Assembly: GCA_964374105.1 (NCBI GenBank)
Contig: CAYJXI010000001.1
Location: forward strand, 7,743-71,742
Length of the DNA stretch: 64,000 bases
Reading direction: 5' to 3'
From: an uncultured Planctomycetales bacterium
GTDB lineage: Bacteria; Omnitrophota; Gorgyraeia; Zapsychrales; JANLHA01
Part shown: positions 2 to 27,600 of the stretch, piece after piece
Position numbering within the stretch: the stretch's first letter is position 1
Layout of the letters: the number at the start of each line of letters is the position of its first letter
The notes under the pieces: generated by a model
What the model was told of the DNA's origin: nothing
Databases searched by the model: none
What the model saw: only the letters and a program-made list of their open reading frames with translations
Program-made: the position numbers and the translations under genes

Positions 2-660
2 GGGAAGGTCGCTGTGGAGACTGCCGTCATCATCGCCGGGCTAATGCTGGTCAACAAACATCTGCACAATAGATATGCTTTACAATTCATTTCGCTCGCC
101 GCCTTGACGCTGGCCATCTCCTTGATCCTGCACGGCGGTAATGTGATAATTCAGTTTGGTCAATTTGGGGATGTGTTGATTTGGAGAGTCCTTTCCGTCT
201 TTACCGGCACATTGATTTCCAGCCTGCTTTATGAGAAAGACAAGACTTTAGGTCAAAAGATTCTCTCCTCAATCCGCTGGACAGCGGCCATCAGCATTTT
301 GAGCGGGTACTACTTGTACTTTACATTTATTCCGTTCATTGGCGAGAGCTTCTCTGTGGAACGTTTCGGGGCAATCGCTTCCTACCTCAAATCGGCCTTC
401 GACCTGACGATCGGAAGTTTATTAACGATTCCGTTACAGGTCGCCTTTGGCGCGGCTTTGGGTGAGAAAAAGAATATTGTGACCCAGTGGGAAGAATTCA
501 AGACAACCGTCATAACGATTTATCCCATCAACTTCCTCTTCTGGTATCCGATGATGGTCATTGGTTGGTCCTTGTTCCCGGATGCATTCATTTTCAAGAA
601 TTATCATGCGGTTTTGGTGACCTTCTGGATGGGCATCCTTTCCCGCATTGTTAAGGTGTC
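2..660 (+). other. Cluster of ~6-7 predicted transmembrane helices
   Basis: Hydrophobic stretches such as VAVETAVIIAGLMLV, LQFISLAALTLAISLIL, VLIWRVLSVFTGTLISSLL, AAISILSGYYLYFTFIPFIG, ITIYPINFLFWYPMMVIGWSLF, AVLVTFWMGIL. Confidence 0.6.
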
Positions 661-6600: not shown

Positions 6601-9600
6601 GGCGGAATCACTCGCGCGAAAGCTCTTCCATATCGAAACCTTTCAAGTGAGAACAGAGAGGCTTAAGACAGCGGATGTGTTGTTTGTGAAACTGCTTTTG
6701 GCTCCATTAAAAACATTTGTGGTGATCAATCTCCTGCCTGTTGCCGCAAGAGTTATTGCCGAACAACTCTGGGATTACTTTATGACAATGTTTTCCGCTT
6801 ATTTTATGAATCGTGATCGGTCAATACTCTTAGAACCAATTAACAAATTTATTCAATCATTTTTGAAGGAAAGAAATGAATCCAAAGGAAATCAACCCGC
6901 ACCTTACCTGCCTACCAAGGAACAAAAGGCCAAATACGAAGGCAGGGTTTATTCCGGCAAAGTGGTTGTTGAGGGTAAGGAAGTTAAAATTGTCAAACAA
7001 ACCGGCGTTCGACTCAATGTCCAACAGAAGAAGGCCTTGAAGGATCTCTACGCGGTTGTTCCTTACTTAGCCCAGGCACCGCCGGTGGTCGTGACCTCGG
7101 ATTTTGGTAAGACCGAAGGGTCGATTACCGCTTACAATCCTGCCGAAGGCATTCTCTACATTCACCTCTTTGTGCTCGATAAACTCGTTGAATTCGCCAA
7201 AGGTGACAGTCACCAAAAGGTGACAGTCACCTTTGTAAACTTCCTCAGAGGCGTCATCGAAGGTCATGAACGATTCCATGTTGAGGGTGCCAACGAAGCA
7301 GATGCCCGCCTAAAAACGATTGAATATCTTCAGGGGAATTTGGAAGTCTTACAGGCGACTAGGCAAATCCTTTCCTATCCAGATATCTTTGGAATCACAG
7401 CCGAGTCCCAGTTCGCTAAAATCCTCAATCAAGAAAAAGAATTCTTCAACGTAACAAGAAAAGAAGATGTTGAAACACAACCAACAGAATCTGGCCTTCA
7501 AGAGGAAGACTTAAGATCCCTTGATCAAATCACTGGCTTACGAGTTCGGATAGCGCATACGGTGACACCTTACGCGGCCAAATATCGTCAAGAATCCATG
7601 GAGCAGAGAAGGCGTCTCACCGGCCAGATGACCTATGATGAATTATTCTTCAACAAGATCTTACCCAGATTTATTGAACGCTATATCCGATACATCTCCT
7701 CTGATCAGCCGCAAGGCCTCATTGATATGCTTCTTATTTCCGGTGAGGGTGGTGGTGGCAAGTCTAGTATTACCGAAGAATTTGTCAGCAAGACAGGGGA
7801 GGTCATAGAGGACTTAAGTCTCAAACTTGGCAAGCCGTTAAGACAGATTATCCTTGCGATTATTTTTGATGATTATATTTTGCAAAAGAGCGACCGTGTG
7901 ATTGATCCCAAGACCCGAAAGACTACAGAGAATCCGCTTTTGAAATTCCAAGTTGAACGCTTTGTCAGTGATATGAAGAAGCTCCTGGAAGGCAAGACGA
8001 TCTATAAACCAATCTTTGATTCATTGACAAGGGGTCGAATCAAGATCGGGCTTGACAAAAATGATCGTCTGGCGGTTATTGCCGGTGGCCATTCAGTTCC
8101 CATTGAGATGGATGCGGCATCCGGCCAACCCTTTATCGTAGTGGAAAAATTGAAAGTCTCAGAGTTTACTTTGGGTAAAACAGCGATTTCTGTGTCGGCC
8201 AACCCAGCCGGCGGAATCCTCCTTAAGATAAGAAATACAGCTCATCACCTGACAAGAGATAAAGATCAAAATTGGGTCTTACACGTTCCGCAGAAAGGTG
8301 AGGTTGCGGTCTCTGATCAACCCATCGAGGCTTGGGAAGAGATCAATCCCAATGGCAAGATTATTATCGTGGAAGGGATATTGACCTTGTTTGATGAGAA
8401 TTTAGCGAAAGATGAAAGGGTGATCTCGATGTTTGTGGATGCCCATTTTGAGGCCAGGCTCCTCAGGATGCTGATTCGCTTCCAGGCTGAGGCTGCGGCG
8501 CGTGGGGAATCGGCCGCGGAATTTGAAGCAAGACGGAGATTGCTCAGATTGGAGGAAGAGGTTCCTTATATTTTACCGACCCGCCAAAACGCCCAATACA
8601 TTGTCACAAGCTTAAGCCGTTCTGAGATGATTTATGTTCTCTACTTACGGGGGAGATTGTTTAGTTCTCTTAAAGAGGTAAGAAGAACGATAACAGAACT
8701 GAAGATCAATCCGGTTGAATTGATCCGCCGTTTGAATAGGATTCCTAGAATAGTCATCATGGAAAGATTAGCCGGGACCAATAATATTATTCATCACATC
8801 CAAGGGACTTCCTTTGTGACCTTCTATGGCGAGGAATCCGGCCAGATTGTTTACAAGGCACCTCGGGAGAACTTTAAGAATTACTTTGAAACGAAGTTTA
8901 TTGAGTTTTATCGAACGGTCTTAAAGAAACGGCTGGGAGGCCTCATGGTGCCGAGTGGACTATTCAATCTTAAGACAATGGGATTAGAAATTTATCGCAG
9001 TATTGACAAGAGGCTGGTTCGATTGAGTAAGGTCCTTATCCAGAATCGAGTTGAAACATTAAAGGAGAGATTGAATAAACTGATTAAAGAAGGAGAAATC
9101 GAGAAGGCTAAGAGATGGATTGATCAATACTTTGAGATCCAAAAAGCCCTTTGGAGTGTTGGAGTCATCGATATGGATCCTAAGATGCTTGAGAAGTATG
9201 GGATTATGGTCATGGAGGATGGGCGAGAAAAGGTGGTTGTTATTGGCATTGATCGATTGTTTGCTACTCAAGAACGATTCGAGCGGGCCGTTTATCTCAA
9301 AGAGGGAGTCCGACCAAGTCAACAGGATCTTCCGAAAGAATTCGTGGATTATTACGATCAAAAGGTCGATGAGGAGATCCCTGATTTTGAGGGATTCCTC
9401 AAGATTTTTGGAAGCAGGATCCCTGAAGCCCACGGGGTGGCTAACATCGCTGATACAGAGATTCGTAGAAAACAAATGGAAACAATCGTCAAAGAAGTCA
9501 TAACCGCCACGATGTTCAGACTGGGTCAATTCTTAAACCAGATGATGAGAGAAAACAAGGAGGTTGTTGATTTTCCGTTTATCTATTGGCTGGCCCTTTA

Positions 9601-12600
9601 TCGCGAAACCATTCATACTTACGCGACTTTGCAGTACACATTGGTTGACCATGTCTATCAGCGGGTTATCAATGATCAAGAGGTTTACCGAAGATTGAGG
9701 GACCTCAGCCAAAAGAAAGATCGATTTGAGGACTTTAATCAAGAGATCATTAAACTCGTTCATGAGGTGGTCAAGGAACTGAAATTAGGGATCACAAAGC
9801 GTGAGATTTACAATATCGCGGAAGATCTCTTCAGCTACGAAACGTATATGAGAAGAGAAAAAGGCCGCACTGATTCTGGAGCGAACCCCGCCCCATTTGA
9901 ACCAACACAAGACGAGAAGTCTAGGTATGAACCTTTAAGATTTTCCATGAAAGTCATTGATGGGGAAAAAGGCGAGGTCTCAGTTATAGAAGACGTTGTC
10001 CGATATTGGACACAAAAACATGCGGATGTCTTAAAAGACCTTTATGAACGAGTCGCTTATCTCGCCTTGGCTCCACCGGTTATTATTACCTCTGACTTTG
10101 ATAAGACAAGAGGTTCAATTGCCGCCTATAATTCCGCCGAAGGTGTCCTCTATATTCATCTTTTTGTCTTCGATAAGCTGGTTTCCATTAAGCATCTCAA
10201 CCTTATCGGTCGGTTTGGTCAACTCAATCATGAATATAAATCCGCCTTCTTAATGTTTTTAAAAGGAGTTATTGAAGGCCACGAGCGGTTCCATATCGAG
10301 GGCATTTTAGACGAAGGGTTAACCCGGCAAAAGACCATTCAATATCTCAGTCAATGGGAACATCGAGAGGTTCTTTTGGCCACTCGTCAAATTTTAATGG
10401 CTAAGAATATCTTTGGTGTTGAGACACAGGAAGATTTCTTTGTTACTATTCATGAGCTGGATGATTTCAGCCTTACCCGTCTGACGATTTTCGATAGTAC
10501 TCTAAGCGACTCCATCCACTGGGATTTCAGTCTGGAACTCCTGGCACAGAGAGAAGGCATCCCGGTTACCCATCTTAAGCAGAGGCTTAATGGCAAGACC
10601 ATAATGCTGGTTGGTATTAATAGTAACAGCATGATTGTTAACTTGGCGCGTCTATTGCCAGCGAGCTCAATCATTGTTGTCAACCCCGACAGCTCAATTA
10701 TTTCTGGTGAGGTCGCAAACGTCCGGTATATTCATGATGGCGTTGAAAACATCGCCCGGTACTCAGTTAACGGGGTTGATCTCATCTTCTCCTCCGGGCT
10801 CTTTAATGAGGATTATCCCGGGATCAAGCCGCAGCAATATCCGGCCTTTGCAAAGGCTATGAAGGAAAGTCTTGCTGCTAAGGGACTCATGCTCATTGGC
10901 ACTGGTCTTACGGGTAATGAAGTATTTGAGAAAGTTTTACGGACAGAAGATTTATTCGTAGAAAAATTATCTGAGATAGGAAGCTGGATATATCTGGTTA
11001 CAAAGCAAGATACAAGTGACAGTCACTCCCGCCAAGGCGGGATGACTGTCCTGCCTGCCGGCAGGCAGGTCACTTCTGGAACTCGAGTGGCATTTAAATT
11101 TATTAAAGGGCTGTTGCAGGCTTCGCTTGCTGTCATGCATGTTTTGGGGCAAGCGGTTCAACCAATGCGTCACCTACCGTGGCTGGTGAGGCGCATTGTC
11201 AAGAGTTATTCTGTAACAGCCCTTCCATCTATATTTAAGTTCTTAGCCAAGATGGCGGGTGTATTAGCCATACAAATAGTTGGCATGGGCGGCGGGAATA
11301 TCGGGGTGGTTTTGGTTATTACCACGCTGACATTCATTGTGCTTTGGGGAGGCTATAAAATTTCCAAGAATGTTAAACAATTCGTTGATCAGGAACGCCA
11401 ATACTTAACCAGACTCAAAGAATTGGCTGAAAGACTGAAAGAAATTGGTCAACGGATTCCTGAACTGGAAGAAAAAGCCAAGCGATTGTCCCCGGAAGCC
11501 CGAGATGCGGTGAAACAAGGACAGGAGAAAGTCTTAGCGGCCGTTGCCGGCGATCATTTTGAAGAGGCGTATGAGCTTCTTGAGCATTTATGGCAGACAA
11601 TCGAAGGTTATATGAACAATCTCATCGGCATTCCGGATGAATTGAAATATTTATTAAAGGAGCAGGAAGCGATTAACCAAAAAGGCAAGGCTATTGAGAA
11701 ACAACTTGTTTCCTTACGTAGCAGGGTTTCACGGTTCGTTGAATTCCTCTCTAGTCGCCTCCATAAACAACTGCGCCAGGAAGAGTCTGACCTTATTGTC
11801 AGCTGTTGTTATGCAACACTAACTTTTGATTTCGCGGTCCATGAAGCGGAATATCAAGCCGAAAGTACTTTGCGTGATATGACCTATGTTTTGAATTATC
11901 TTATCAGCGAATACACCCATGTCTTGAGAGAGAAAATGGAAGAAAGGAATGAGGTCGCTGTACTTTCCCCTGAGCAGATTGCACTCTATCACGAGCAGTA
12001 TATCGAGAAAAATATAAGACCAAAGATTGCCAGAGAAATCACGAGAGAAAAAATCAGTCCACAGAAGATTGACCAGCTTTTGGCCTATTTGAATGAATCG
12101 GCCGATCATATGGTCGAGGTTATGCCTCGAGGGGCGCCGGAAGAGGTACTTAAGAAAGCCAAAGAATTAAAGGCCAAGAGGAGCGCCATAGACAATTACA
12201 CATTAGAGGAAATTGCCCGAAGATTCGATTTCTGTAAGGCCTGCGCCCCCAATCAGGTTTATGGAAGGATCATCGCGGCGTCAGAACGGGTGGGTCAGTT
12301 TGAGAGAATTGTTCGCTTCAACCAGAGACTCTATGACTTAAGCGAAAAGATTGAATATATCGGCACAAAGGTCGGTGTTGATGTAAACCTTAAGCGTGGT
12401 TTTTCCAATCTTGAGCATACCTTCGGTTTGACGTCACCCCTGGAAGGCCTGGCCCGAGAAATTCTTTCCATAGATGATATTAAGCGCTGGAGGATTGTCA
12501 GAGACAGCGAACTGGCCAAGAAACGTTTTGGCGGGGAATTTTTAAGTCAAGTCAACGAGGCTTTGTTTAAGTTAATTGTCCATGACATCTTTGCCGAATC

Positions 12601-15600
12601 CGGCCACGATTCCTGGGAAAAGACCGCACGGGTAAGCCACTTGGGCGATTTACAGCATCCGGAGAGTATCGGTGCGTTATATTTGGTTTCCCTGCAGGGC
12701 GGGCACACCGCGGCCCACGCCATGGGGGTGTTATATGACCTATTAAGGGATGAGGAGTTCTTAAAAGTCCTGCCGGTGGCCATAAAAGAAAAGGTTCAGC
12801 CTTTGATCGATCGTTTTGCTCAAGCCGAACCGTTAGACCATTTTGACTTCTATACGATTGGCTGGAAGTATTTTGGTCTTGCCGAGGCGGCAGTTGTGCA
12901 GGGCTTAAGAAGCGATGACGCTAACTACCGTAAGCAGGCGATCGGCGCGGCTGAGGTTGCCCCGTATGAAGCTGATCTGCCTGAGCTCTTGAGTGAGGTT
13001 CGACGTCTTTTAAAGGAAGGATATGTTACCGATTTGACAAGATTCTTAGAGGATCGGATGGCTTCTCCCGTGGGTCCTGTGGTTGACATTGTTCGTCATT
13101 ATGTTCGTGATCAAAATGAGTTTAATGTCCATATTAGGCAGATCATTGAGATTGTGGCCTCGGCGGTCAACCGCTTCCGGGACACGCTCGAAAATCATCC
13201 CGAGATTCATAAGATGCACTTGGAAGAAAAACCAGACTATGTTGGTGTCATTGAGGAAAGAGAACAATTACAGAAAGAGTTAAACAAATATGTACCAGCT
13301 GTCATCAATCTTACTCCAGAACAGGCAGTGGTCCTTGATTTATCTTATGAGGAGGTTATGAAGACAACCGCTTCACTTCTTGTTTTGGGCAACGATGAGC
13401 GCTGCCGCAGTTGTCTTTTCGCCAACCTTGAATCAGGGGACTTATTTAAGAAAGAGGCCGCGGCCAAGGCGGTTGTGATGCCCCATAACCGAAAGATTGT
13501 TGGGCCAAAGGCCATGCTCCCGATCTTGAGAATTAAAGGTCAGACACAGGATCTTGAATTAGAGGGAGATATCCGTCTCTATCTGTCTGATGTCATCGAA
13601 GAGAACGAAGATTTTGCTCAAGAAGCAAGGCGTTATCTTAAAGAGACATATTTTGCCGGTTATCCGCCAGTGGCTGGATTTATCAATGCACTTGAAAATA
13701 GAAAGGCCTTAGTGAGGATCCTCGATGTCTTAGAAACGATGGGCGCGGAATCGTTCGTACAAATGGCTCTCAACCAAGAGAGGCTGGTGGAATGGTTGAG
13801 TCAGCAACTGGATTTATGGCTCGGGTTAATGGAGTTCAACACGATTTTGGGTGTCGTTTTGGGTAAGGAGGCGGCCTTAAATATCATTGAAGATATTATC
13901 AATGATATGAGGACATTTGCCGTTACCAGCTTGAAAGAAGTTCCTTATCGTCTGTTTATTATCCGTGAAGACAGACCGAATTTCTTTGTCTCGCTCATTG
14001 ACTATATCAGGGTGAGATTAACCCCGCGTAATCAAATAGTCGTGTTAAGAGAGCTAGGCCGATCGGCAGAGATGGTGATTAACATGGATACGACACCTGA
14101 TCAGCAGATTGTTCGCCAGAACTTTCATTTGGCGATTGTTATTTCTAAGATGTCAGCTTTGGCGTTTGGTGCCCAGTTTGTAGTGAATAGTGTCAAGGAG
14201 GCCACCGAACCCTTAGAGCGCTTGTTTGGTAAGGATGAAAAAGCCTCTCTGGTTGAATTACTGAAGGTCCTGCGTGAGATCCTGGAGAGATTGGATAAGG
14301 GAATCTATGCGGCTATCAATGAATTCATAGCCGATGTCCAAAGAGCGGTAGAGATTAGAGATGGTCTGTTGAAAGCCATTCAAGAATTACCCGCTGTGCG
14401 TGCGGCCCAGCAGCGCCGCAAGACCCTCGGCCAAGAGATCGGTCAACTGCGTAAGAGAATGAAAGAATTAAAAGAAGAAGGCCAGAAGCAAGAGTTAGAA
14501 AAGCAAATGGCTGGTTTGATTGACGAGCAGCGTTCCCATCAGGAAATTACCGATCAAGTAAATGCTGTCAATAAGGCTATAGATTTGACTTACCTTAGTT
14601 CTTTGAGTAATCAGCTGAAACAGAAATCTTCGTCGCTCGCCCAACAGGTTGAAAAAGAAGGTGTCTTAAGCATTAAGGGACGATTAGAGCAATATTTTGA
14701 ACTCTATCAAACCGAGGTCTTATTAAAAGAGTTGAGGGACGTCAATAGAAAGGTCATTACAACCTTCTTAAGTGAAGGGCAAGCAATACCTGTTGAATTA
14801 CCAAAAGATTATATCATCACCAATGAACTGAATAATCTGATTTTTGGCGCTTACCGGGCCAGAGAGGCCGAGGTCATTAGAGGAATCGTCCGGCCGATGG
14901 TGTGGACTTATATCTTTGAAGGACCGGCGGCCGTAGCAGAAAAGCTTTATTCACCACAAACCTTGGCACAACTTAAGGCTCTGGGTTATCAGAATCCGGA
15001 AGTCCTCAAAGAAGGATTAAGGATAAGAGGCGAGGTTGAGCCACCGGCTGATTTGTTGGCCGTCCGTCAGCACCGTTTGAATCTGGAAAAAGAAGAACTC
15101 CGTACACTTTTTGCCCAACTGCCGGTAGAGCTTGTCGAGTTGGCGAAAGAGGCTGGTGTAGAACTGGCTGAAGGCGAGGGAGTGGATCACTTTGCCCAGT
15201 TAGAGAGTGGTAGCTTGGAAAAGATTTATGCGGTTCTTAAGCCGTCAGAATTTACCGATTCTTACCAAGATGTCTTAGCTGATATTGAGACCCATATCGA
15301 GGCCATGAAACGCATCGAGGCAGAAATCGGTACGGCCACAGAAACCCGGCAGCCAGTGGATGTTATCGTTAGCAGCGATGTGGTGGAGAAGGTTAACATG
15401 GGTGTTGGGTTTGCTTCGTGTCTGTGCGTCTTAACCGGCGGCAACCGCCACAGCGCCTTTGTCAATGCCTTTGAACCCAATAAACTGGTCTTTTATGCAG
15501 TCAATAATAAGGGAACAAGGATCGGCCGGCTCTTAGTGATTCTCACCGATCAAGGATTGCTTGTCCACCGCGAATATAAGAGCACCACCTTGAATCTGGG

Positions 15601-18600
15601 ACCGGTCTGGTTTGAATTACTTACTCTCTTGGCGCAGAGATTGGGCAAGCAGGTATTGATCCCTGTTAAGGTGGCAGGCATGATCTTTGGTATAACAGAA
15701 AGTTTACAGGCTCAGCATATTCGGCCAATTGAATTGCCTGCTGAATTAAGCGTACTGCGTGTAGAGATGTTTAGATTTCCATCCAGGCTCTGGTATGACG
15801 ATCTTGGATTTACAAAGATTGATCTAGCTCAATCGTTTGAGCTGGAAGTATCCGGACAATTCTATATCTTCCCAGCGAAAAGGGATGATCAGCGCGAAGA
15901 TAATCCTGTGACTCCTGAGCCCACCGCCACAAGGTCGGGTGAACCGCTTTCAACAGAACAAGAAGACAAACTTCGGGAATACCTTAAACTCAAGGTAGGG
16001 CAGTTCAGCAGTTATGCGGACATTAAGGTAGACCAGATTGAGGCAACCATCAAGGCCTTGCGTGAGGCGGGCTTGAAAGCCTTGGCGAAGCGGCTGGAAG
16101 AACTCAAAGAAGCTCGTAAAATCCGCGCTGGGCCCAATGATGTTTTTGAGGAATTAAAGAATTTCGGCATTGATCTCTTGGCCTTCAACTTTAAAGACTG
16201 GATCATCATCCATCCGGAATTAGTAGAAACCCCCCATCGCATTCGCTTGCATCAAATCCTCACCCATGAGACAGCAGCAGTCCTTGGCTTCTCACATAAG
16301 ATTAACCTCATGTTTGAGAAGGTCATCACCAAAGAATTCACACAACAAGAACCAGGGTTTATTGATTTAGGTGAAAGAGAAAAGGTGTCTATCCCCGTTT
16401 CTGTAGTTGACAAAGTCGAGACTATCACTTTTAGAACTCAACCAGTTGGTTATCAAATCAAGAACAGACAGGTCATTCGGTTAGAGAATAGATTAAACCC
16501 GGATTTTGCATTGGCAAAATCCGCCCGAAGGGCCGCTACGGCATCCCGCCATGGCGGGACGCCTAGCGGGGTTAACCCCGCCAAAGGCGGCCGAAGGCAA
16601 AATTTGCAAAGCACTTTTCTGTATAGAAACAATCAACGAGGTCAAAGTCCTATTGCAAATTTTGGGTTAAAAGGCGATATGGCTAATGCTGTTCTCGGCA
16701 GAGGCAAGGGAGTCACTTTGTGGGAGGGCGGGGCTATCCAATGCAATTATTGTGTAATTTGGGATAGTTCAAGACGACAAGGGGCGATCATCCACACGAA
16801 TTATCTCCAATCCAAAGACATGATGGTGTCTTTCTTGAGAAATATTTTAGAGATATTAGGAATTCCATTAGAGGATAAGAGCTATTTAAGAGATCACGTT
16901 TTGACAATGATAGCTAATGCTCCTCACCAATCGGTCTTTGTCAGTGAGATGTCAAAGAGAATCGAAACCGTGCTGGCTGACAGCTTGGATGAATTAGGAT
17001 TGCCTCGGCTTAGGACGGATACCAGCGTTGCCTGGTATGTTACTCATATTCAATTTTTCGTAGATAAAGGAATAATACGATCAAGCTATAAGATTAACGA
17101 AAGGCAATTTTATCAAGTGGACTTAAAAGAATTGTCTAGATTGCGAAAAATGGGAAAAATGGGGACTGTCCCCATTTTTGAAGCCTCCGCGCCAATCTTC
17201 CGTGCCCTGCCTGCCGGCATAACAGGACCGCTTGAAGCCTTCGCTCCAATCTCCCGTGGCTCCCTGTACCACGTAGGGTACAGGGCCATGAACCCAACGT
17301 GGTTCATGGGGGTCATGAGAATTGTTTCCCAAACGACAGCGGCCCTTTTAAAATCTTCCGTGGCAGGCCCCGTAGAGAAACTTTACGGGGCAGGGAGGTC
17401 GCCGCAGATACCACTTGCACAAATCAAGGGACCGGTTATGCCTCACCATCCGTGGCAGGTGACGAGCATTCACCAGGGCCCATCTGCGGCGGCCTCTTCT
17501 TATCACAAGTCACAAGACATCCTTCGACTTCGCTTGGGACAAGCAAGTCAGCCCGCCCTGGTCTTCGCAACTGGCGGGCCAGGGAGGTCAGCCCGCCCCG
17601 GTCTTCGCAACTGGCGGGCCGGGGAGGTCAGCCCGCCCCGGTCTTCGCAACTGGCGGGCCGGGGAAGTCAGAAGACCCAAGATTCAGGACGCACAACGCA
17701 GAACACAGAACCCAAGACTCTGAACTCATTTGCACCTATCGTGATTGTGGGTTTAGGGATTGCAACGGTTGTCATCATCATGACGATCAAGGCTAAGAAT
17801 CGACTCATGAAGATAACCAAAGACTTTTTAAGTATTGCGACATTGATGGCCGTTGTTGGAAGTCTTTGGACGATTTGGATAAATCGTGAAAAAGAAGTTG
17901 AAGTGATTCCAAATACTCTTGATTCCCTCCCCCTTGTGGGGAGGGTTAGGGAGGGGGTGAGGTTACAGTCTTCACCCTCCCCTAGCCCCTCCCATCAATG
18001 GAGGGGAAATACAGGATTGGGAGAACAGGACGATTCAGCAAGAATTGTTTCGAGTGTCGGCCCAGAATTCTACAGAAGTGTCAGTGCCATACTCAACAAT
18101 TGGTTAGAGGAGAGAATGAAATATATTGTGATTGAATTAGCACCCAGAATGAGTCAAGAACAAACACGGAACCTCTTTCATCTCCTGAGGGCCATGCAGG
18201 AGGTCACAGAAACAAGTGGCTTGAATACACCTCTGCTGGGTGTAGATCGTATGGCCGTTGGCTTCCACGAAAGTGATCGTTTCAAAGCGAATCGTCAGTA
18301 TCGAGGGCCTGCCCGCGGGTGGCTGCAGGTGGAGAAGAATACCATTAAGCATGTGGTGGAAAATTTAATGCCTCGATATCCAACTCTTATTCCCATCGTT
18401 GTGAAAGAAGCCGCAGATTATCATAAGAGGGCAATGACCTTTAAAGATATTCAAAGATTAACGCCAGATGAACTCGGGGTGTTAGTCAGACAAAGGATTA
18501 AATTTGATGTGGCGGTTCATCTTGCTTACTTTATAGAGGAAATGAGTTTAGGTGTCAGGAGGTTAGCCACTCAACATGGTCTTCTCTTGGATCGAGAAAA

Positions 18601-21600
18601 TATTCCTGATTTCGAGGAAGGGTTGATCGAACGAGAAATCCGACAGTTAGTTAATGATAGCAACAATCCGCAAATCATAGACAAGATCTTGGAGGAAATG
18701 ACTAACCTGTGGCTTAACCAATGGAATCGAAAGCCGGGCGTCTTACAAAATCGGATTAATGAACAATCTCGATTGTCTCAAGAGATCCCATCTCTCAAAG
18801 AGAAGTTGGCAGATACGTTGAAAGACAAAAAAGATTTATTGATGCTTCGACCAGGCTCAGCATCAATCCTGAGCGAAGTCGAAGGATTGAGACTCTTTAA
18901 GACTCAAGCAACAAGCCCGAAAGAATTCTTATCATTCGCTGAACAGTTAATTCAACTGACTAAGGCTTCGGATGAACGTATTTCCCAATTACCCAGTGCG
19001 ATTAAGAAAGCCATCCGAACGATCATTAAAAAGGAAGAACGATTGAGCGAATTACCTGCCGAAATGGAAGAACTGAGAACCGAGATTAAGGCCTCCCAAG
19101 AGAAGTTTAGAAAAGAGATGAATGAACTTAAGCCGATCTTTAGATACATCTACATCGCGATGAGATTGCAGGTGATTTACAGCAAAGCTGTCCTTGCCTT
19201 GGAGAAGGATTCTCATCAATCCAATGCTACAAGCCAGGAGAAAAAGTCAGATAGCATCATTAGAGAAAAAATAAAATCTCAACCTAAGCCAGTTACAAAG
19301 AAAACCAATCGAAAAGGAAGATCATCCCTGAAGGCCATAAGTGAGGTTTATGGTCTAGTGCTTGTCGTAGGGCTTGTGATTTTAGGTGTGATAGAGCTCA
19401 TGCGACAAATCCAAGAGTCGCAATGGACCTTGGGTGAGCGGTTAAGACAAGTTCATCAAACAATAAAGAGACTCTTGCCTTTCCGTTGGATGGAAGTTGC
19501 AGGTTCAGGTGGCCTTTCTTTCCCGATGTTTATGGAAGGTATTTTAAACAGAGGAATAGGTGATAATCCATTTTTGATTCATGGCCGAGATGAACGATTA
19601 ATGCTGCCGGTATTTGAACAAATGGCGGATGCGCTTGAAGAACAATTGCTGGTAGCAAGTACAGATTTTCAATATTTGATTCACATTGTACAGAATGGGA
19701 AGAATAAAGAGAACCGTTTAAGGGCCTTAAAGACCTTGATTAAGATCCTGCTTGATCCCAACAAAGAACCTGCTTTGTTAAAGGCTGAGGGTCATCTCAA
19801 TGATAATGACAAACAAGCCTTAATCTCCACAAGGATTCATCAGGCCCTCTTTACTGTTATCAATACTGAAACTGATAAGGAAATTCAAAGATTGGCTTTG
19901 GAGGCGTGGGTTATTAATTCAATTGAATTGCTTGTGGAAAATCGTCATCAGGGGGATTCAGGGATTGTTCTCAATAGAATGTTACGCGAGGTCCTTGCCT
20001 TGAAGGTCGCCCGTTCTCAACAAGCCAATCTTGTCATGGAAGTCCTTGATGCCAAGATAAAACAATCCCCAGATAAGGACTCTCAAGAAGTTATTGAAAT
20101 GATGGATTGGCTAGAGAAGATCATCGAAAGAATCGATGATCTAGAAGAAGATGATGATATTGAATATCGAGGGTCATCGGGACTTAAGGCTTTTGGAACT
20201 GTCAGTATGATCATCCTTTTGGTGGGTTTAGGGACAATTTGGATTTACAAGAAATTTGCCCAAAACAAACACCCGGTGTTTGGCGGTGAACAAAACATAA
20301 GAGGTGAAGAAGTTTCTCGGAGAAAGGTATTCAAATGGATAGGATTAACCGCGGTAGCCATTGTTCTCAACTGCACAGGATGTTCACTAATCTGGCCACC
20401 CAAAGCACAGGATTTTGTACTTGTTAATTATGCGGTTGAGCCTCTCAACTGGGCTAAGATTACGGGGGATGCCCGAGTTGTCTTTTTGGGAGAGACCGAG
20501 CACTTTTCTTCAACCGATAAATATCTTGTTGCCAGATCTCTCAAAGAATTGAAGACATTAGGAATCACCCATTTGGCTCTGGAGAATTTGGAAGTTCATA
20601 CTCAGGATATTGTTGATGCGTATTTAAGAAAGGAAATTCCGTTATCCGAAATGGAGGAAAGGATCAGATCAAACCGGCTCCAAAGACCTAATGGGGAAAT
20701 TGTTTTACCGGCGATTTATCTGCCAGGATACAGAGAGATCTTCCAAAATGCCCAAGCATTAGGGATTAAAGTCATTGCCTTAGATAAACCTAAATATGAA
20801 GAACACACTATCCGGGAGCGTAATCTTCAGTGGGTAGAAATTATTTTGTCTATCCTTAAGAATGACAATAAGGCCAGGCTTTTAGTCATTAACGGCAATG
20901 CCCATTCGAATTATCAATATAGATTCCTAAGAAGAACAAACGCCTTTTATGCCATCCCCCAAGAGTTAACGCCAGTTGTCCCCGAGGCCATTCAAAACGA
21001 AGGCTTCCCAGTGGTCGTAACACAAATGGCAGGTATTGACGGCTCGGACCTCCCAAGCTATAGACATCTTATTATTGAGGCGGTAAAGAGATATGCTCAA
21101 GATGATAAGCGAGTAAAACTTGACCAGCCGCAGATGATGATTCCCCGCGAAGGGTTTGTTGATGAAATTTGCGATTGTTACATTTACGCCCCAGCCGTAA
21201 CGACTCTTAAAGCCTTTGACCCGGTGATCGGTTTGATTATGTTCCTTGGTATTGCCGGGTTGAGTTTATTGAAGAGGTCAAAGGTGAGGTCAAAGGTGAC
21301 TGTCACCTTTGGTGACAGTCACCTTTGGGCAAGGCGCTCGTTCCTAAGGACAGTCTTCGGGCTAGGGACAGCTTTAGGATTAATGCCATTTGCTCCAAAG
21401 AAAGCTCACGCAGAATTAACCGTTGATCAAAACCTGCCACCTGATCTGCGCCAGTTGTTTGAAATGGTAATCCCGATCGCACAAATCATGTTGACTAGGG
21501 AAATAAAAACAGAGGACCAGGAACTTAAAGAGCTCTCGAGAATTTCCCATCGATTCCTCTTAGAACCCGGCGTCAAGGTGACCTTTACCGTAGGTGATCT

Positions 21601-24600
21601 TAACCAAATCATCGCTAGTCAATCGAAAAACGAAGACGATGAGTATAGAAGAGAACTCATGAACCGACCCGATGCTGCCGCGCGGGCCATGGTGACCAGC
21701 TTAGGGGCCAATCGTTATGTTGTGACCTACGACTTTAGGATGATCAAGGCAGGGATGGCAGCCTTGATTACCGGGCTTGCTCATGAACTTATTGCTCACA
21801 CTTATATCATGGAGAATATGAAAGAAAAATTATCACCTCTGGAAGAGGAGAGACTCGCTTTTGCTTTGGAGATCAAATATATTGAGGTGCTGTTAGCCGA
21901 CCGCGATCTGGTTGAACAGATTACCTTGGGCGGCAGGAATTTAACGATCTACAACGATTTTAGAAATCTATTGGAATTTGAAAAAGCCACCCTGGCTTGG
22001 ATTGAAAAGGAAATAAAACAACAGAAGGCCGCGCAATTAAAGAAGACAATCGCCATCATTGGTGCAACAGCACTGACAGCGGGAGCAGGCGTCTTAGGGA
22101 CTTTACAGGTCATCAAGTTAAGAAGATTCAAGCGCGTTCGTCTCGTCTTTGATGCAATCAAGGGTCAAGGGGCATTTGCTCAATTGGATAAGCTTTTACG
22201 AAAACAATTAGTCGCCCAGTTTACAAAAGGTAATCGTTTCGAACGTGCGACCTTAAAGCAGGCCGGGCTGTCCACAACCCAGAGAGAAGAATTTAAAAAG
22301 AATTTATCCCGGATGATGAGTGAAGAGGAGGAAGACGAAGGGAATGAAGGCGGAGTGATGCTGGGAAGCGGGAGAGGCTTAAGTGCAGTGCAGGAGAAGA
22401 TGGTGAATCAGGCGCTGGTAGAGAGCGAGGTGAAGGAGGTCAGTGAGGAGGAGTACCGAACATTGGATGCGGGAGGCGAACTAAAGTCCGAAGGGGTGGT
22501 GATCCATAAGGTGAGCGGGTTGAATGCGAAGATCGAAGAGATCGGGCAAAGAGAACATACGATGTTTGGGGATGAGGTGGTGACGTATGCGAAGGTGAAG
22601 GAAGATGGGAGCAAGCATTTGTACTTGGATGAGCGGGAGATGTATGTGGTGATGAATCTGAGTGAGAGGTTAAGGAGGCAGTGGGGAAGTCATGAGTTAT
22701 TGCACTTAAAGCAGCCGATGCTGAGTGAAGAGCTGGTGCAGTTGCAGGTGCCAGTGGATGAGGTGTTAGAGGCGAGGGCGAAGTATCTGGGGTATGAGAC
22801 AGGAGAGGTGAAGGCCTTGGCTATAGTGAGGAAGGAAGGGGTGAAGGAGAAGGAAGTGAGTAGTGCGATGGCGGTGGCGAAGGAATATGGGGTAGTGCCA
22901 TCAAAGGTATTGGCGTTATCGAAGAAGCATGGACTGCCGGTGGTATTGACGGGCGAGGCGATGGGGCTTGCACAGAGGTATAAGACGACGATGAGTCAAG
23001 TAGCGTTGTGGGGCAAGAAGTATGTGGGGATTTTGAATAAGGCGGGGTTGAGCCGGGAAGAGATCGATGAGATCTGGCGGACGTTAGGGTATGAGCAGAA
23101 GGAAGAGGTGTTAGATGCGATCGAGAAGATATTAGAGATTCATCAGGAGATCGAAGAGAGTGAAGTAAAGTTTTCGATGAGTGTGATAGAGCTGGTGCGA
23201 GCGTATCGGGTGGTAGGGGATATGGATGAGCTGCGGGAGCTGGTGCGGATTGCGATCGAGCATCCGATGAGCGGGCGGGGATATGGGCAGGTAAAGCAGC
23301 GGTTCCCCGAGTATGCGAGATTTAAGAAGCTCTTGGAGATATGGGAGGAGTATGTGGAAGCGGGTCATCCGATCAGTGCCGAGATCATAGAACAGATGTT
23401 TGATAAGAAAGGGCGATCGCGGTGGGTGAGTGAGGAGGAGGAAGGTGAGGAAGAGGAATGGCATGAGGGCGGGGTGATGCTGGGAAGCGGGAGAGGCTTA
23501 AGTGCAGTGCAGGAGAAGATGGTGATGCAGGCGCTGGTAGAGAGCGAGGTGAAAGAGGTCAGTGAAGAGGAGTATGCTGCGTTGGATGTGGGAGGAGAGT
23601 TGAAGTCCGAAGGAGTGGTGATCCATAAGGTGAGCGGGTTGAATGCGAAGATCGAAGAGGTTGCCCAAAGGGAATGGACATCGTTTGGAGATCGGTTGAT
23701 CACGTATGCAAGAGTAGAAAAGGATGGCAGTAAGCACCTGTACCTGGATGAACGAGAACTGAACGTGATTATGTATTTACCATCCCGCATCCGTCAGCAA
23801 TGGGGCAAACATGAAATGGGTCATCTTAATCAACCATCTTTACCTGAAGAAAGGATACAGAAGGACGCTCCCATTGAGGAAGTCCTTAATTCACTAATCC
23901 ATCCAACTGAACCTATTGTCAAAGTATATGATGAACTCGGCGGGTTGAAGATATCAAGGAAAGATCAACTCTTTAAAGATAAAGAAGGAAAGAAGAGGCC
24001 GTATACCCGCAAGGGCCAGGTGTTACACACCTTCCATCTTGCTGTCCAAGAAGATTTGAAAGCAGTTATTGATCAGAAGATTCTACCTGCTCTCACTACA
24101 AAGAAAGCAAAAGCGAAGATAGAAGAAAATCTTCAGCTGATATTTAGACAGACCGGGGAATTTGGGAATATTAAAACGATCAGTATTTCCAACGGGATGT
24201 TGACCCCACTTTTCTTTGAAGAAGACCGCACTTACGTAGATGTGAGCCTGTTATTGATGCCTTCCGCTCCCTTTAAGGAATTATTGAGATTGGGTTCTGC
24301 CCATGCCTTTGAGAAGAGCCGAATATATCGGGTTCAGACGAGTAAAGGAAGCTTTATTGATGAGTATAAGGCCGATAGTGTGAGTGTGTTTGAAGTGGCT
24401 TTAAGTCTTCTAGCGGCGGATGAAAAAGTGCTTAAGCAACTGGAAGAGGCATTCAAGAATTTAAGCAAAGCTAATTGGGAACTTTCAGTTTATCAAGAGC
24501 TTATCGATGCCCTGCGGTATTTAAGAAGCCGCTTTGTCGTACAAAAGTATTTGTTAAAGGCACATAACATTTATGACATTTACGATTGGGAAATAGATCC

Positions 24601-27600
24601 ATTTCGGGATCGGTATGTGTTGAGTCAACAAAGAAAAGAGATATTAACCCGGGCGATCAAACTAAGAGAATCCTTACGAGATATTGTCGTAAGAAGAAAG
24701 AACATTATTTTGAGATTATTAGCCAATGATCCAAGATACATTGAAAAGAACAAAGAGAAAGAGAAAAAGAAAGAAAAAGAAAAGCGAAAAGCCATCAAAG
24801 AGCTTGCCCGCAGGAAATTCCTCTTACCCAGAAAAGCCGAGGTTGACCGGATAGCTCATCTGTGGGAAAGGCCGTATGAACAAATCGGCCAGGCCTTGAT
24901 TTCCTCAAGAAATCATCATTACTTGCAAATTATCCGATTAGTGCCCGCAGAGTTCATGCGGCTTTTGGGCATTCTTATCGATGCACGTTCTTTATCCAGT
25001 CATCTTCTTAAGAGCGGTTATACAAGGAAAGAGTTAAGCCAAGGATTTGGGATCTTCTTTAACCAAGTTGGAACAAGTCATGTCTCCATTGAAAGTCGGT
25101 ATAACGAGATGATGGCAGCCCTCATTTTATATCGCGGGGCTTTTAGCGAAGATCTCTTTAAGGAAATCTTTGCCCAACTGGAGGTTGCCGAAAGAAAGCA
25201 ATTGACGTCTTATTTAGGAGAACAGGTTTCGCGGGTCATTAACTATGAGAGAACTTATATGGGAATCATCAAATATCTTGCGATGTTCCCAGGAGCAACG
25301 GTAAAAGATTTGAAGGCTCAAGGATTATTTGCGGAATTGTTCGATCTGTTTATTAAGATTCACACAATGACCGTCCAGAAAGAAGAAGTCATTGAGCTGA
25401 CAGTCAAGGAAATGCGAATCAAGGCAAAGAAAGTCTTGATGACAAGACTTCTCTCCCGTTATGGTTGGGCCTTAGGGTTATTTTTAGCTCCGGGATCAAG
25501 GGTTGATAGAAACCAAGTGATCTCTTTTATTGGATATTACAAAGAACAAATTCACAGGATTGTCGATTTTTATCTTGACGGAACATTAGTGATGGATGAA
25601 ATGGTTTTAGAATCCATCAGTCATTTATTGCCTTACCTAGCCCTGGAAGGTTATGACAAGCGATTAGGGGTGGTGAGAAAGAAAGTCAAAGATTTTGGAT
25701 CACTTGAACGATTGTTTAGCGTGCCGTTGGAGTCCCCAAGTGAAACTTTAGCTGTAGAAAGGGCAGCGGTAAAAGCCATGTTAACCGCAGGGGATGAAGA
25801 GACGTTACGAAGGGTATTTAATGACTTGAAGAACTTCTATCAGACCCAGCGTAAACCAAAAGAAATCATTGCTGATTCCGCCATCGATTATGCCTTGGCC
25901 CTTATTCAGGGGGTACAAAAACTTTTACAAAAACCTGTCACTCAAGAACAACGGCAAATGGTCGCATCGATGGTAAAGGAGATTGCCTCTCATCTGATTC
26001 ATAAAGAGTTAACGATTACTTCAATACAAACTTCCATGGAAGAAAAGGCCAAACGGATCATCACCTCCATTCAGAATCTCCCTCAAGAGATTTTAACGGA
26101 AGCGCTGAAAGTGTTGACCGATCATACCATTCTTGATTTTATATTTTTCCGTGATGAAATGGCGGTTATCCGAACCGATGTGCTTAAAGTTGTTGATGCA
26201 GAAACCTTAAGTAATTATTTTTCAACCAAGAGCGAACGGGAGGTGACTTCAAGTCTTGCTCCTATCAAAGATAATATCTTGAAAAAGAAGGTTTTGGCTG
26301 CCATGAAGGCTACAGAAGTGGGTAAGATGCCCGCGATGGCCAAACATGTTTTAAGACGGGAAATTTACCTCAGGGAGACTATTCATTTACCCAAAGAGCT
26401 GACCGCTTATTCAGGGGAGGCTGTCCCGAATTATTACGCTATCTTAGGAGTTCCCATGAAAGCCACACCTTTGATGATAGACCGATCATTCAAGGCGCTT
26501 TCCTTCTTGTATCATCCTGACCGGGCTCAACCTTCTGAGAAGGCCAAGGCCGAAGAGGAGTTCAAACGGATCAATGAGGCTTACCAAGCGCTCTCTGATC
26601 CGCAGAGAAGGAAGGAATACGATGAGAGTATACCCAAGTATGCTTACTACTATCCGTCCAAGCCATGGTTAGAGTCGGATGTGGATCTGGATGCTCTCAT
26701 AGCCGAATCCGTGGTTTCGGAAAAGAAAGAAAAAGAAACGCCAAGCGAAGGTCAATACAAAACCAGTCCGTATCTTCCAGTCCGCTTGAGTGATCTTAAA
26801 AAATGGTCGAAAGCCTTGAGTGAAGATTTAGAAAAAGAAACTGGAGAAGCAAAAGAGCCCAAGAAAAACGAACCCCAAGGTCAAGGAGGGGCGATCCTTG
26901 CTTCAGGAAAGAGTTTGAGTGCTAAACAAGACTCGATTATCCGCAGGGTATTGAAGGAAGCTGAAATTGAGGGTACCGATATCATCGCATTTCGTATCCT
27001 TATTACCGAAAGTCCATTATCTGGAATGAATGTCAGAATCCAGGCCATCAAAGATTTCAATCTTAAGATCCGCCAATTGGCTGAGGAAGAGCAAGTGCCA
27101 TTTAAGGACAGAGTCGTGACCTACGCTTATGTAGATAAGTCAGGCGTAAAATATCTCTATTTAGATAAAATGGAGAGGGAGATGATCATTCATCTTCCTA
27201 AACATTTGCGTGATCAATGGGCAGAGCATGAAATGCTGCATCTTGAAAACCCAAGATTAACGGAAGAAGCAGTGCAAAAACGAGCTCCTATTGAAGAATT
27301 CTTGCGCGCCCTCTATCCTCCCGAAGAACCTACCATTAAAGTTTATGATCAGTTGGGAGGGTTGAAAATCACAAAGGTGTCATCGACGTTTACTGATATT
27401 GAAGGTGTAACGAAGGATGTTTCCTTCAAGGGTGAGGAGATCAGCACTTATCATGTTTCCTTAAGGCCAGATGATGCGAGGCATTTAACGAGAGACTTTG
27501 AGAAGATTTTACATCGTCGAATTAATAAACCCAGTTCGGAGAAGATAGGATGGAATTTTAATTTCTTGACGGGGGAGATCAGCCGGTTTGGTGCGATAGA

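Follow-up and report, generated by a model that had tools for sequence, protein, structure and literature searches.

BoxC, PIT and TMECO are names given to one class of interspersed bacterial repeats, which has been described as intergenic and as mainly proteobacterial or cyanobacterial. To our knowledge, neither a function nor a copying mechanism has been assigned to this class, although it has been known since the 1990s. In this work, a stretch of 64,000 nucleotides (nt) of DNA (assembly GCA_964374105.1, contig CAYJXI010000001.1, positions 7,743 to 71,742 of the forward strand), hereafter called the window, was analyzed with respect to an element of about 90 bp that occurs in it twice, 34.3 kb apart. 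Each copy is very probably an inverted pair of 37-nt BoxC/PIT/TMECO units, that is, of a G/C-rich interspersed repeat characterized by a conserved class II purine-motif intrastrand triplex. New here are the sequence variant, with an off-center A in its G-rich blocks, the intragenic and translated location, and the residence in a giant gene of an Omnitrophota-like host.

BoxC was described in the 1990s as a palindromic repeat of E. coli and was renamed TMECO by Holder et al. 2015 (PMC4666352). As summarized in that paper, it had meanwhile been rediscovered by Hoyne, Maher and colleagues (2000, 2002) under the name PIT, for "potential intrastrand triplex". The published TMECO pattern, 5'-CCCTCNCCC N3-6 GGGNGAGGG N3 GGGNGAGGG, corresponds to a class II purine-motif intrastrand triplex, and circular dichroism (CD) and nuclear magnetic resonance (NMR) revealed a stable triplex on the isolated E. 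coli strand (PMC4666352). The genome of E. coli MG1655 contains 23 TMECO copies, all of them intergenic; five of the sites are inverted pairs composed of a TTA-loop unit and a CCG-loop unit, TTA being the type A second loop (PMC4666352). Effects on promoters, terminators or conjugation and links to transposons, phages or plasmids were not found, and TMECO-bearing sites had undergone more inter-strain rearrangement than control sites (PMC4666352). Coding locations, cross-phylum identity and recurrent in-frame residence are not discussed by Holder et al. 2015 (PMC4666352).

In the window, the best-bounded element is 86 nt long, begins with TTCCC and ends with GGGAA, and lies at 17923-18008 (copy A) and 52243-52328 (copy B). 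The two copies differ at five positions, and blastn of their neighborhoods yielded an alignment of 88 nt with 94.3% identity (E = 4e-35). They are spaced by 34,320 nt, which equals 11,440 codons, have the same orientation and codon phase, and both encode SLPLVGRVREGV..QSSPSPSPSHQ.RG. The G+C content of the element is 62%, compared with 44.5% in the window. The initial annotation, made from the letters of the stretch, had reported two copies of about 90 bp with some five differences, a common codon phase, this peptide and a G+C content above that of the surroundings, and all of this was borne out by alignment and translation. The right flanks of the copies are identical at 11 of 24 positions, i.e. 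on this side the similarity ends at the element. The pattern CCCTCCCC-N3-8-GGGGAGGG occurs twice in the window, in copies A and B only, and did not occur in 100 shuffles.

The order of parts in each unit is a pyrimidine arm (CCCTCCCC), a loop, a purine arm (GGGGAGGG), a TTA or CTA linker and a purine mirror block (GGGAGGGG). The first loop has 5 nt, except in the right unit of copy A, where it has 6 nt. Pyrimidine and purine blocks of the kind known from the family, complementary over about 8-9 nt and separated by a loop of 3-6 nt, are present as CCCTCCCC cttgt GGGGAGGG on the plus strand at 17925 and 52245 and as CCCCTCCC ttgat GGGAGGGG on the minus strand at 52326, while the minus-strand unit at 18006 has one mismatch. 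A purine-motif triple helix is recognized by triads of the types G*G-C, A*A-T and T*A-T, in which the third block runs antiparallel to the purine arm. The window was scanned under ITxF-like rules for G/C-rich class II units with at least 8 triads and at most one bad triad. Exactly four units were found (plus strand, 17925 and 52245; minus strand, 52326 and 18006), against none in 50 shuffles. The mirrored third block follows the purine block after about 3 nt and produces no bad triad in three of the units and one in the fourth, that at 18006, owing to a T at 17999 where copy B has G. Relaxation of the scan to 6-7 triads added one A/T-rich match (minus strand, 18600, 7 triads, one mismatch) unrelated to the element. 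On single-stranded DNA, the pyrimidine and purine arms would form a hairpin, and the third block may return along the purine arm in antiparallel orientation, held there by triads of G*G-C and of A*A-T (or T*A-T). That the window units form triplexes is what we infer from their sequence together with the published biophysics of a related one. The parts of both copies are listed in Table 1.

Table 1. Parts of the two window copies with their predicted triplex units, and three genes of other bacteria in which units are translated (MAG, metagenome-assembled genome)
Feature	Position	Strand	Description
Copy A, left extension	17899-17922	+	TGAAGTGATTCCAAATACTCTTGA; 18/24 identical to 52219-52242; not in other genomes' copies
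Copy A, left predicted triplex unit	17923-17959	+	class II purine-motif; 8 triads, 0 bad triads; contains the core 22-mer
Copy A, left unit, pyrimidine arm	17925-17932		CCCTCCCC
Copy A, left unit, loop	17933-17937		
Copy A, left unit, purine arm	17938-17945		GGGGAGGG
Copy A, left unit, linker	17946-17948		TTA
Copy A, left unit, third-strand mirror block	17949-17957		GGGAGGGGG
Copy A, left unit, end	17958-17959		TG
Copy A, spacer between units	17960-17972		13 nt, AGGTTACAGTCTT; holds 4 of the 5 inter-copy differences
Copy A, right predicted triplex unit	17973-18008	-	CCCCTCC, ATTGAT, GGGAGGGG, CTA, GGGGAGGG, TG
Copy B, left extension	52219-52242	+	TGAAGTGGTTTCAAAAGCCCTCGA
Copy B, left predicted triplex unit	52243-52279	+	same as in copy A; unit at 52245, 0 bad triads
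Copy B, spacer between units	52280-52292		13 nt, GAATCACAGTCTT
Copy B, right predicted triplex unit	52293-52328	-	CCCCTCCC, TTGAT, GGGAGGGG, CTA, GGGGAGGG, TG; unit at 52326, 0 bad triads
Xaa-Pro dipeptidase (PepP), MAG labeled Patescibacteria (L096)	9-707		about 40 extra residues at a cluster of predicted triplex units, compared with 1wn1_A
MurE, MAG labeled Nitrospirae (L056)			about 30 extra residues (NTPSLTLPPRGGGQGWGG), compared with 8f5d_A
LeuS, MAG labeled Gallionella (L021)			two inserts, compared with 6q89_A

The initial annotation had described the element as three consecutive hairpins of C and G tracts. This description holds for the minimum-energy fold under DNA parameters, which consists of three consecutive hairpins (-26 and -27.4 kcal/mol for the two copies, z -3.7 and -4.0). 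It does not hold for the conserved unit, which is a hairpin plus a mirror-repeat third block: the supposed middle hairpin would arise by pairing of the two third-strand blocks with each other, which leaves a G.T and an A.C mismatch. The position of the off-center A is informative in this respect. The purine arm and the third block read G4AG3 and G3AG5 on the plus strand and G3AG4 and G4AG3 on the minus strand, so that each half keeps its own mirror relation at the cost of pairing between the two third-strand blocks, which argues that the triplex unit and not the middle hairpin is the constrained feature. The differences between the copies point the same way: four fall in the spacer, one in a loop and none in the 48 block positions (P = 0.014). 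If the left extension is included, 10 of 37 unstructured positions differ, compared with 1 of 73 structured ones (Fisher P = 6e-5). Such conservation of the blocks could reflect either purifying selection, or homogenization after copying, or an origin from different source copies that are alike only in their conserved parts.

Under RNA parameters, the element folds into one long imperfect hairpin of -59.4 and -61.2 kcal/mol in the two copies (z -4.7 and -4.1). The computed folds, which include Watson-Crick pairing only, beat all 200 shuffles with either parameter set. A hairpin of this stability could act at the RNA level, by pausing ribosomes or RNA polymerase on the mRNA, as a processing site, or as a small RNA like Whalefall-1 (RF01762). 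The Whalefall-1 consensus (CUCUCC, UUGG, GGAGAG ... GGGUGAGG) follows the same logic of pyrimidine arm, purine arm and G-rich tail, and the halves at 17923-17964 (plus strand) and 17968-18009 (minus strand) match it with 20.0 and 15.7 bits, below the gathering threshold of 37 bits; it differs in an extra 23-nt hairpin between arm and tail and in being described as RNA. Neither the window nor the element in 18 related loci contained a match above the gathering threshold of any Rfam family, and E-value thresholds added only generic miRNA-hairpin models and the weak Whalefall-1 match. Neither terminator-like nor promoter-like sites were found at the element on either strand, and the mirror block has no part in the RNA hairpin. 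Purine-motif triplexes do not form in RNA (PMC4666352), and neither promoter nor terminator activity was seen for PIT elements according to the account of Hoyne and Maher 2002 given by Holder et al. (PMC4666352). An RNA-level role of the window element is thus considered very unlikely, and Whalefall-1 may itself be a DNA repeat of the triplex class rather than an RNA.

The assignment to BoxC/PIT/TMECO is supported by direct alignment. Matches of half-units at 80-87% identity over about 40 nt were obtained by blastn in 3729 of 5426 complete E. coli genomes. The BoxC pair in the gabT-gabP intergenic region of E. coli (L123, 396-492) aligns colinearly with the window element, and so do pairs from a Chlamydiae-labeled MAG, a Nitrospirae MAG and one metagenome contig. 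The window units share with the described family the block order, the unit length (34-37 nt), the arrangement in short-spacer inverted pairs, one TTA unit, and loops that are less conserved than the blocks. They differ in the off-center A, in the partner linker, which is CTA and not CCG, and in being intragenic and translated in an Omnitrophota-like host, whereas E. coli TMECO has been reported as intergenic throughout. The second loops of paired units differ from each other, being TTA (plus strand) and CTA (minus strand) in the window and TTA and CCA (the minus-strand reading of TGG) in the E. coli pair. A full-text literature search with the exact sequence, and with CCCTCCCC or GGGGAGGG together with "palindromic", returned nothing relevant; the family surfaced through the terms intramolecular triplex and mirror repeat.

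For the distribution of the family, the core 22-mer GGGGAGGGTTAGGGAGGGGGTG was searched as an exact match in one genome per species, and phyla were grouped from the record titles. The 22-mer was found at no fewer than 119 loci in about a dozen phyla. Among the matches listed are Alpha-, Beta-, Gamma- and Deltaproteobacteria, Bdellovibrionota, Chloroflexota, Nitrospirota, Planctomycetota, Chlamydiota, Armatimonadota, Bacteroidota, Actinomycetota, Patescibacteria and a Gastranaerophilales MAG, as well as the isolates Limnoglobus roseus, Pseudomonas citronellolis and Bradyrhizobium niftali. Ahead of the 22-mer, every instance inspected among these matches has a complementary arm rich in C and then a variable loop, and 13 of 118 loci have a clear inverted partner within 250 nt. 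Single half-units therefore predominate, and the conserved unit is the half of the window element, of about 37 nt. Inverted halves are separated by spacers of 8 to more than 100 nt. In eight of the nine inspected loci with a G+C content of 37-45%, the 22-mer lies between long open frames. A metagenome scan with a strict full-pair pattern recovered one locus, which is GC-rich and in which the element is apparently intergenic. An origin as a cyanobacterial miniature inverted-repeat transposable element (MITE) was considered and dropped, given the many phyla, the lack of any cyanobacterium among the matches listed and the similarity of the glycosyltransferase encoded by the host gene to Omnitrophota proteins.

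Across these genomes the units obey a mirror rule, by which the block after the hairpin is the mirror of the purine arm, and neither its copy nor its complement, with A sometimes replaced by T. The rule holds over many arm variants, including G3AG4 followed by G4AG3, AGGGAAGG by GGAAGGG, AAAGGGGGG by GGGGGGATT, AAGGAGGGG by GGGGAGGTT, AAGAGGGG by GGGGAGAT, GGGGAAGG by GGATGGGG, and GGGGGAGAG by GAGAGGGGG. Among 289 distinct hairpins, about half of which are necessarily read on the wrong strand, 86 were perfect by the mirror rule and 18 by a direct-repeat rule. When tails were swapped between units, the number passing fell from 94 to a mean of 60, with a maximum of 73 in 200 permutations. In MAFFT alignments, variation in loop length put the left arms out of register, and rule-based scans were therefore used in place of a covariance model of the half-unit. 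These variants also bear on the proposal that the conserved feature is a G-quadruplex, which would compete with the hairpin as a switch in DNA or RNA. The run GGGG-A-GGG-TTA-GGG-A-GGGGG does offer four G tracts with loops of 1, 3 and 1 nt, and both the window units and the 22-mer fit a pattern of four G3+ tracts separated by N1-7. Variants that keep the hairpin and the mirror have, in contrast, only two G tracts (AAAGGGGGG...GGGGGGATT) or broken ones (GGGGGAAGG TTA GGATGGGGG), and changes in the purine arm are accompanied by matching changes in the pyrimidine arm and at the mirrored site of the third block, as predicted by a triplex and not by a quadruplex. CD and NMR of the E. coli unit likewise indicate a triplex (PMC4666352), which makes a conserved G-quadruplex decidedly unlikely.

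Two types of mobile repeats were compared with the element. The first are classical MITEs and Rickettsia palindromic elements (RPEs): here, a transposase encoded elsewhere would recognize terminal inverted repeats and paste a unit of about 90 bp into genes. The two near-identical copies, their overall inverted repeat, the dispersal of the family over many genomes and its in-frame insertions in conserved genes, as known for RPEs (PMC10969869), agree with such an origin. It is made unlikely by the predominance of single 37-nt units among the relatives, since the conserved unit is then the half and not a whole bounded by terminal inverted repeats, by the variable spacer between halves, and by the absence of target-site duplications. 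The latter had been proposed in the initial annotation as a check, and none was found abutting both ends of either copy (flanks ...CTCTTGA / ATACAGG in A and ...CCCTCGA / GTGAAGA in B); the non-abutting flank 6-mers AAATAC (A) and GAAGTG (B) have inconsistent offsets and were judged to be due to chance. Also against a MITE, published work on E. coli connected the family with no transposon, phage or plasmid (PMC4666352), and only two IMG/VR contigs contain the 22-mer. RPEs resemble the element in being dispersed palindromic repeats that stand in frame in protein genes, to which they add a short peptide, and also between genes; they are repeats of about 150 bp from Rickettsia species (PMC10969869), whereas the window element is built of 37-nt G/C-rich units known from about 12 phyla, the two being set apart here by their descriptions. 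The likeness to RPEs noted in the initial annotation therefore extends to behavior, as seen in PepP, MurE and LeuS below, and not to family, which is BoxC/PIT/TMECO.

The second type are REPINs, in which two inverted REP sequences are mobilized as single-stranded DNA by a single-copy REP-associated tyrosine transposase (RAYT) without leaving a target duplication. Two inverted hairpin-bearing units around a short spacer fit the definition of a REPIN as summarized in PMC3337134, and the element likewise lacks a target duplication, has a structure that forms on single strands and is present in many copies per genome in some hosts. On the other hand, neither the GTAG and CGTC tags, given in PMC3733652 for two large REP superfamilies, nor their complements are found in the 86 nt. 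REP-RAYT pairs are, in the summaries of PMC3337134 and PMC3733652, lineage-specific and vertically inherited, whereas the 22-mer core is identical in about 12 phyla. The mirror-repeat third block, moreover, is not a feature of REP sequences. We know of no association of BoxC-type units with RAYT genes, and a REPIN is regarded as quite unlikely.

Both copies are located within a single gene. The plus-strand frame that starts at base 2 (2..64000) contains no stop codon over at least 21,333 codons and runs off both ends of the window, compared with 893-1653 stops in each of the other five frames; the window is therefore a piece of one gene of more than 64 kb. Pfam domains are scattered along it, among them PRK, a cytidylyltransferase-like domain, DnaJ, a ChaN-like domain, Ribul_P_3_epim (ribulose-phosphate 3-epimerase), an NAD-dependent epimerase, GNAT and a glycogen-synthase-like glycosyltransferase, and they are separated by long stretches in which no homologues were detected. 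Proteins mostly named Omnitrophota share 40-60% identity with the glycosyltransferase part. Genes of this size, of the "multi-enzyme cluster" type, have been reported in Omnitrophota (10.1101/2023.11.21.568195; 10.64898/2026.06.07.730766), and an Omnitrophota-like bacterium is the probable source of this giant gene.

Six-frame translation revealed that one of six frames is open through copy A and two of six through copy B. The other frames are closed by TTAG and CTAG at the second loops and by TGA after GGGGGTG; if the gene has to stay open, copy A could persist in this orientation and phase only. The shared phase is a survivorship filter and gives no evidence of a frame-preserving mechanism. 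Of the RPE-like insertion proposed in the initial annotation, the dispersed palindromic DNA repeat standing in frame within an open reading frame was confirmed, while the element has no frame-preserving property of its own.

Another reading would take the encoded LDSLPLVGRVREGV..SPSPSPSHQ.RG as a peptide repeat under selection in the giant protein, with the DNA palindrome being incidental. In its favor, both copies are translated in one frame within a protein that has genuine internal repeats. Against it, none of 5.8 billion protein sequences shares three 5-residue words with the encoded peptide, which excludes the conserved protein motif that the initial annotation had named as the finding that would overturn its view of a dispersed DNA repeat. 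The same DNA lies between long open frames in unrelated phyla, other genes read it in other frames or on the other strand (as NTPSLTLPPRGGG or HPLPNPPP), and the bases in which the two copies differ lie outside the structure-forming ones and do not follow codon positions. A selected peptide is effectively refuted.

Units of the family are also translated within recognizable genes of other bacteria. Since GC-rich loci are expected to hold long spurious frames, frames that span units there were not counted as genes, and the count was confined to loci of at most 57% G+C with support from PDB or Pfam. Among the 119 matches listed, units lie inside real genes at eight or more loci. Three of these genes are given in Table 1; the solved homologues of PepP, MurE and LeuS are without the extra residues. 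Five further unit-bearing frames are real by Pfam, namely Nnr, a MoCF_biosynth protein, KdtA, a ThiL-like protein and MetG (L018, L025, L048, L057 and L062), and some unit-bearing genes carry two inserts. The five Pfam-confirmed genes use the opposite strand of the unit or a different frame, yielding peptides such as those quoted above, and it is therefore the DNA and not the peptide that is conserved.

The sites of the two copies in the giant gene were also compared with homologous proteins. A query of 1000 aa around copy A retrieved no homologue, and one across copy B matched only the upstream glycosyltransferase domain. In an exhaustive HMMER search of 1.84 billion representatives, a domain of about 175 aa, present in 11 other proteins, was found to end 6 residues before copy B, and nothing spanned the copy B site. 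The best match (P0027) carries this domain twice, and both of the linkers that follow lack the peptide, which places copy B in a non-conserved linker.

Several observations weigh against the assignment of the copies to inserted BoxC/PIT/TMECO units or limit it. The literal TMECO pattern is absent from the window, where the blocks read CCCTCCCC / GGGGAGGG / GGGAGGGGG with the A displaced, compared with GGGNGAGGG twice; because E. coli units nevertheless align with them, the window units represent a sequence variant of the class rather than strict TMECO. Both copies lie within a stop-free frame, whereas E. coli TMECO is reported always to be intergenic, and the triplex was not detected in vivo in E. 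coli by dimethyl sulfate (DMS) footprinting (PMC4666352). An orthologue with an empty site was looked for around both copies and none was found, so that insertion at both sites is what we infer. Finally, the similarity of the copies reaches 24 nt further left than the canonical pair (chance P ~5e-7). As this extension is not found in the copies of other genomes, it suggests that the segment copied in this genome was about 110 nt long, and two independent insertions and a single copying or conversion event from one site to the other are equally likely.

On this assignment, the copies would be secondary acquisitions that entered, or were copied between, non-conserved linkers of the giant gene and would persist in the sole stop-free orientation and phase (for copy A, the one open frame of six). 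The element would be translated into a low-complexity peptide of Pro, Ser, Gly and Arg and is most likely a tolerated passenger, not a functional part of the protein. A likely side effect, judging from published work on the family, is that a transient single-stranded hairpin or triplex stalls polymerases and raises local instability. More generally, the identity of the 22-mer in about 12 phyla, the in-frame units in enzymes and the paired copies in a gene of more than 64 kb suggest a family that is mobile, passes from phylum to phylum and can become part of proteins as linker peptides, as RPEs do. This cross-phylum identity and the residence in frame within genes bear on how BoxC/PIT/TMECO repeats spread. 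For giant genes, the two window copies indicate that long non-conserved linkers accept foreign repeats and, for annotation, that "low-complexity" inserts rich in Gly, Pro, Ser and Arg in bacterial proteins can be translated DNA repeats.

The two copies form direct repeats with a common phase. Recombination between them would thus remove or double a block of 11,440 codons and leave the reading frame intact, and near-identical 86-nt copies at such a distance are a ready substrate for in-frame rearrangement. A bolder and rather doubtful extension is that BoxC-type units are active pan-bacterial mobile DNA, copied by a structure-guided route through single-stranded DNA (with no target duplication and no nearby transposase) and landing in genes, and that in-phase copies serve as recombination points in giant Omnitrophota genes. 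If this were true, blocks of about 10,000 codons could be deleted or duplicated in frame, helping giant genes to grow and reshuffle.

Pairs nearly identical to those of the window were found in a Chlamydiae-labeled groundwater MAG (42-44% G+C), one contig of which carries two of them (L004, 306-455, and L107, 2641-2790). Their blocks and almost all loop bases are the same as in the window; the spacer and the flanks differ, TAA stands for TAG, and one base differs in L004. This likeness points to common descent of the subfamily. The same pairs are flanked by an extra inverted repeat of their own (TATCCGAAAA ... TTTTGGATA in L004), which suggests that each lineage wraps the triplex pair in its own larger palindrome. 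Similar CGAAAA flanks surround a unit in another Chlamydiae-labeled locus (L055), the partner of which is much more distant. Four loci from Rickettsiales and Dehalococcoidia MAGs (L009, L041, L047 and L076) have the hairpin and the TTA or CTA linker with the mirror block replaced by GGGCCTGYCCT; these units look like chimeric junctions with another repeat family. Genomes with such units hold many units per 8 kb (e.g. L104 and L070 of OY762444.1). In one of the two IMG/VR contigs with the 22-mer (L120, 2870-2925), a mirror block stands on both sides of the hairpin (CACCCCCTCCC TAA CCCTCCCCCC tcga GGGGGGAGGG AA GGGTGGGGGG), and each strand thus holds a full unit around one hairpin.

Other repeats occur in the same giant frame. 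Hydrophobic helix-like stretches are encoded just before copy A, and further upstream the giant frame passes without a stop through a GC-rich cluster of about 530 nt (17150-17680) made of unrelated hairpins. This cluster contains AAAATGGGGACTGTCCCCATTTT, CCCTGTACCACGTAGGGTACAGGG, CCATGAACCCAACGTGGTTCATGG and CCCCGTAGAGAAACTTTACGGGG as well as three tandem 40-nt units GTCAGCCCGCCCCGGTCTTCGCAACTGGCGGGCCGGGGAG at 17547-17671, and a second frame is also open through it for 186 codons. Copy B is likewise preceded by a GC-rich repeat cluster (51455-51670), so that both triplex pairs sit in repeat-rich islands. The two clusters share TCACAAGTCACAAG (51458-51471 and 17503-17516) and a GCCCGCCCCGG / CCGGGGCGGGC hairpin, the latter in opposite orientations. 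That a pair and its upstream cluster form one composite insertion was considered and rejected, since the distance of TCACAAGTCACAAG is 414 nt for copy A and 779 nt for copy B, and the two clusters have opposite orientations.

What looks like a third repeat family embedded in this open reading frame is formed by palindromes of the type GGTGAC-N-GTCACC (AAAGGTGACTGTCACCTTT), which occur, sometimes in tandem, at 7199-7231, 21292-21328, 45877-45911 and 51653-51665 and are translated as KVTVTFG or similar. Internal repeats are also seen at the protein level, e.g. GGVMLGSGRGLSAVQEKMV...HLYLDERE, at 22322-22621 and 23441-23740 and at 15914-16222, 30410-30718, 34337-34645 and 39338-39646, with DNA identities of 83% and 62-72%, respectively. 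The stretch from 22 to 24 kb has an unusually high GC skew of 0.44.

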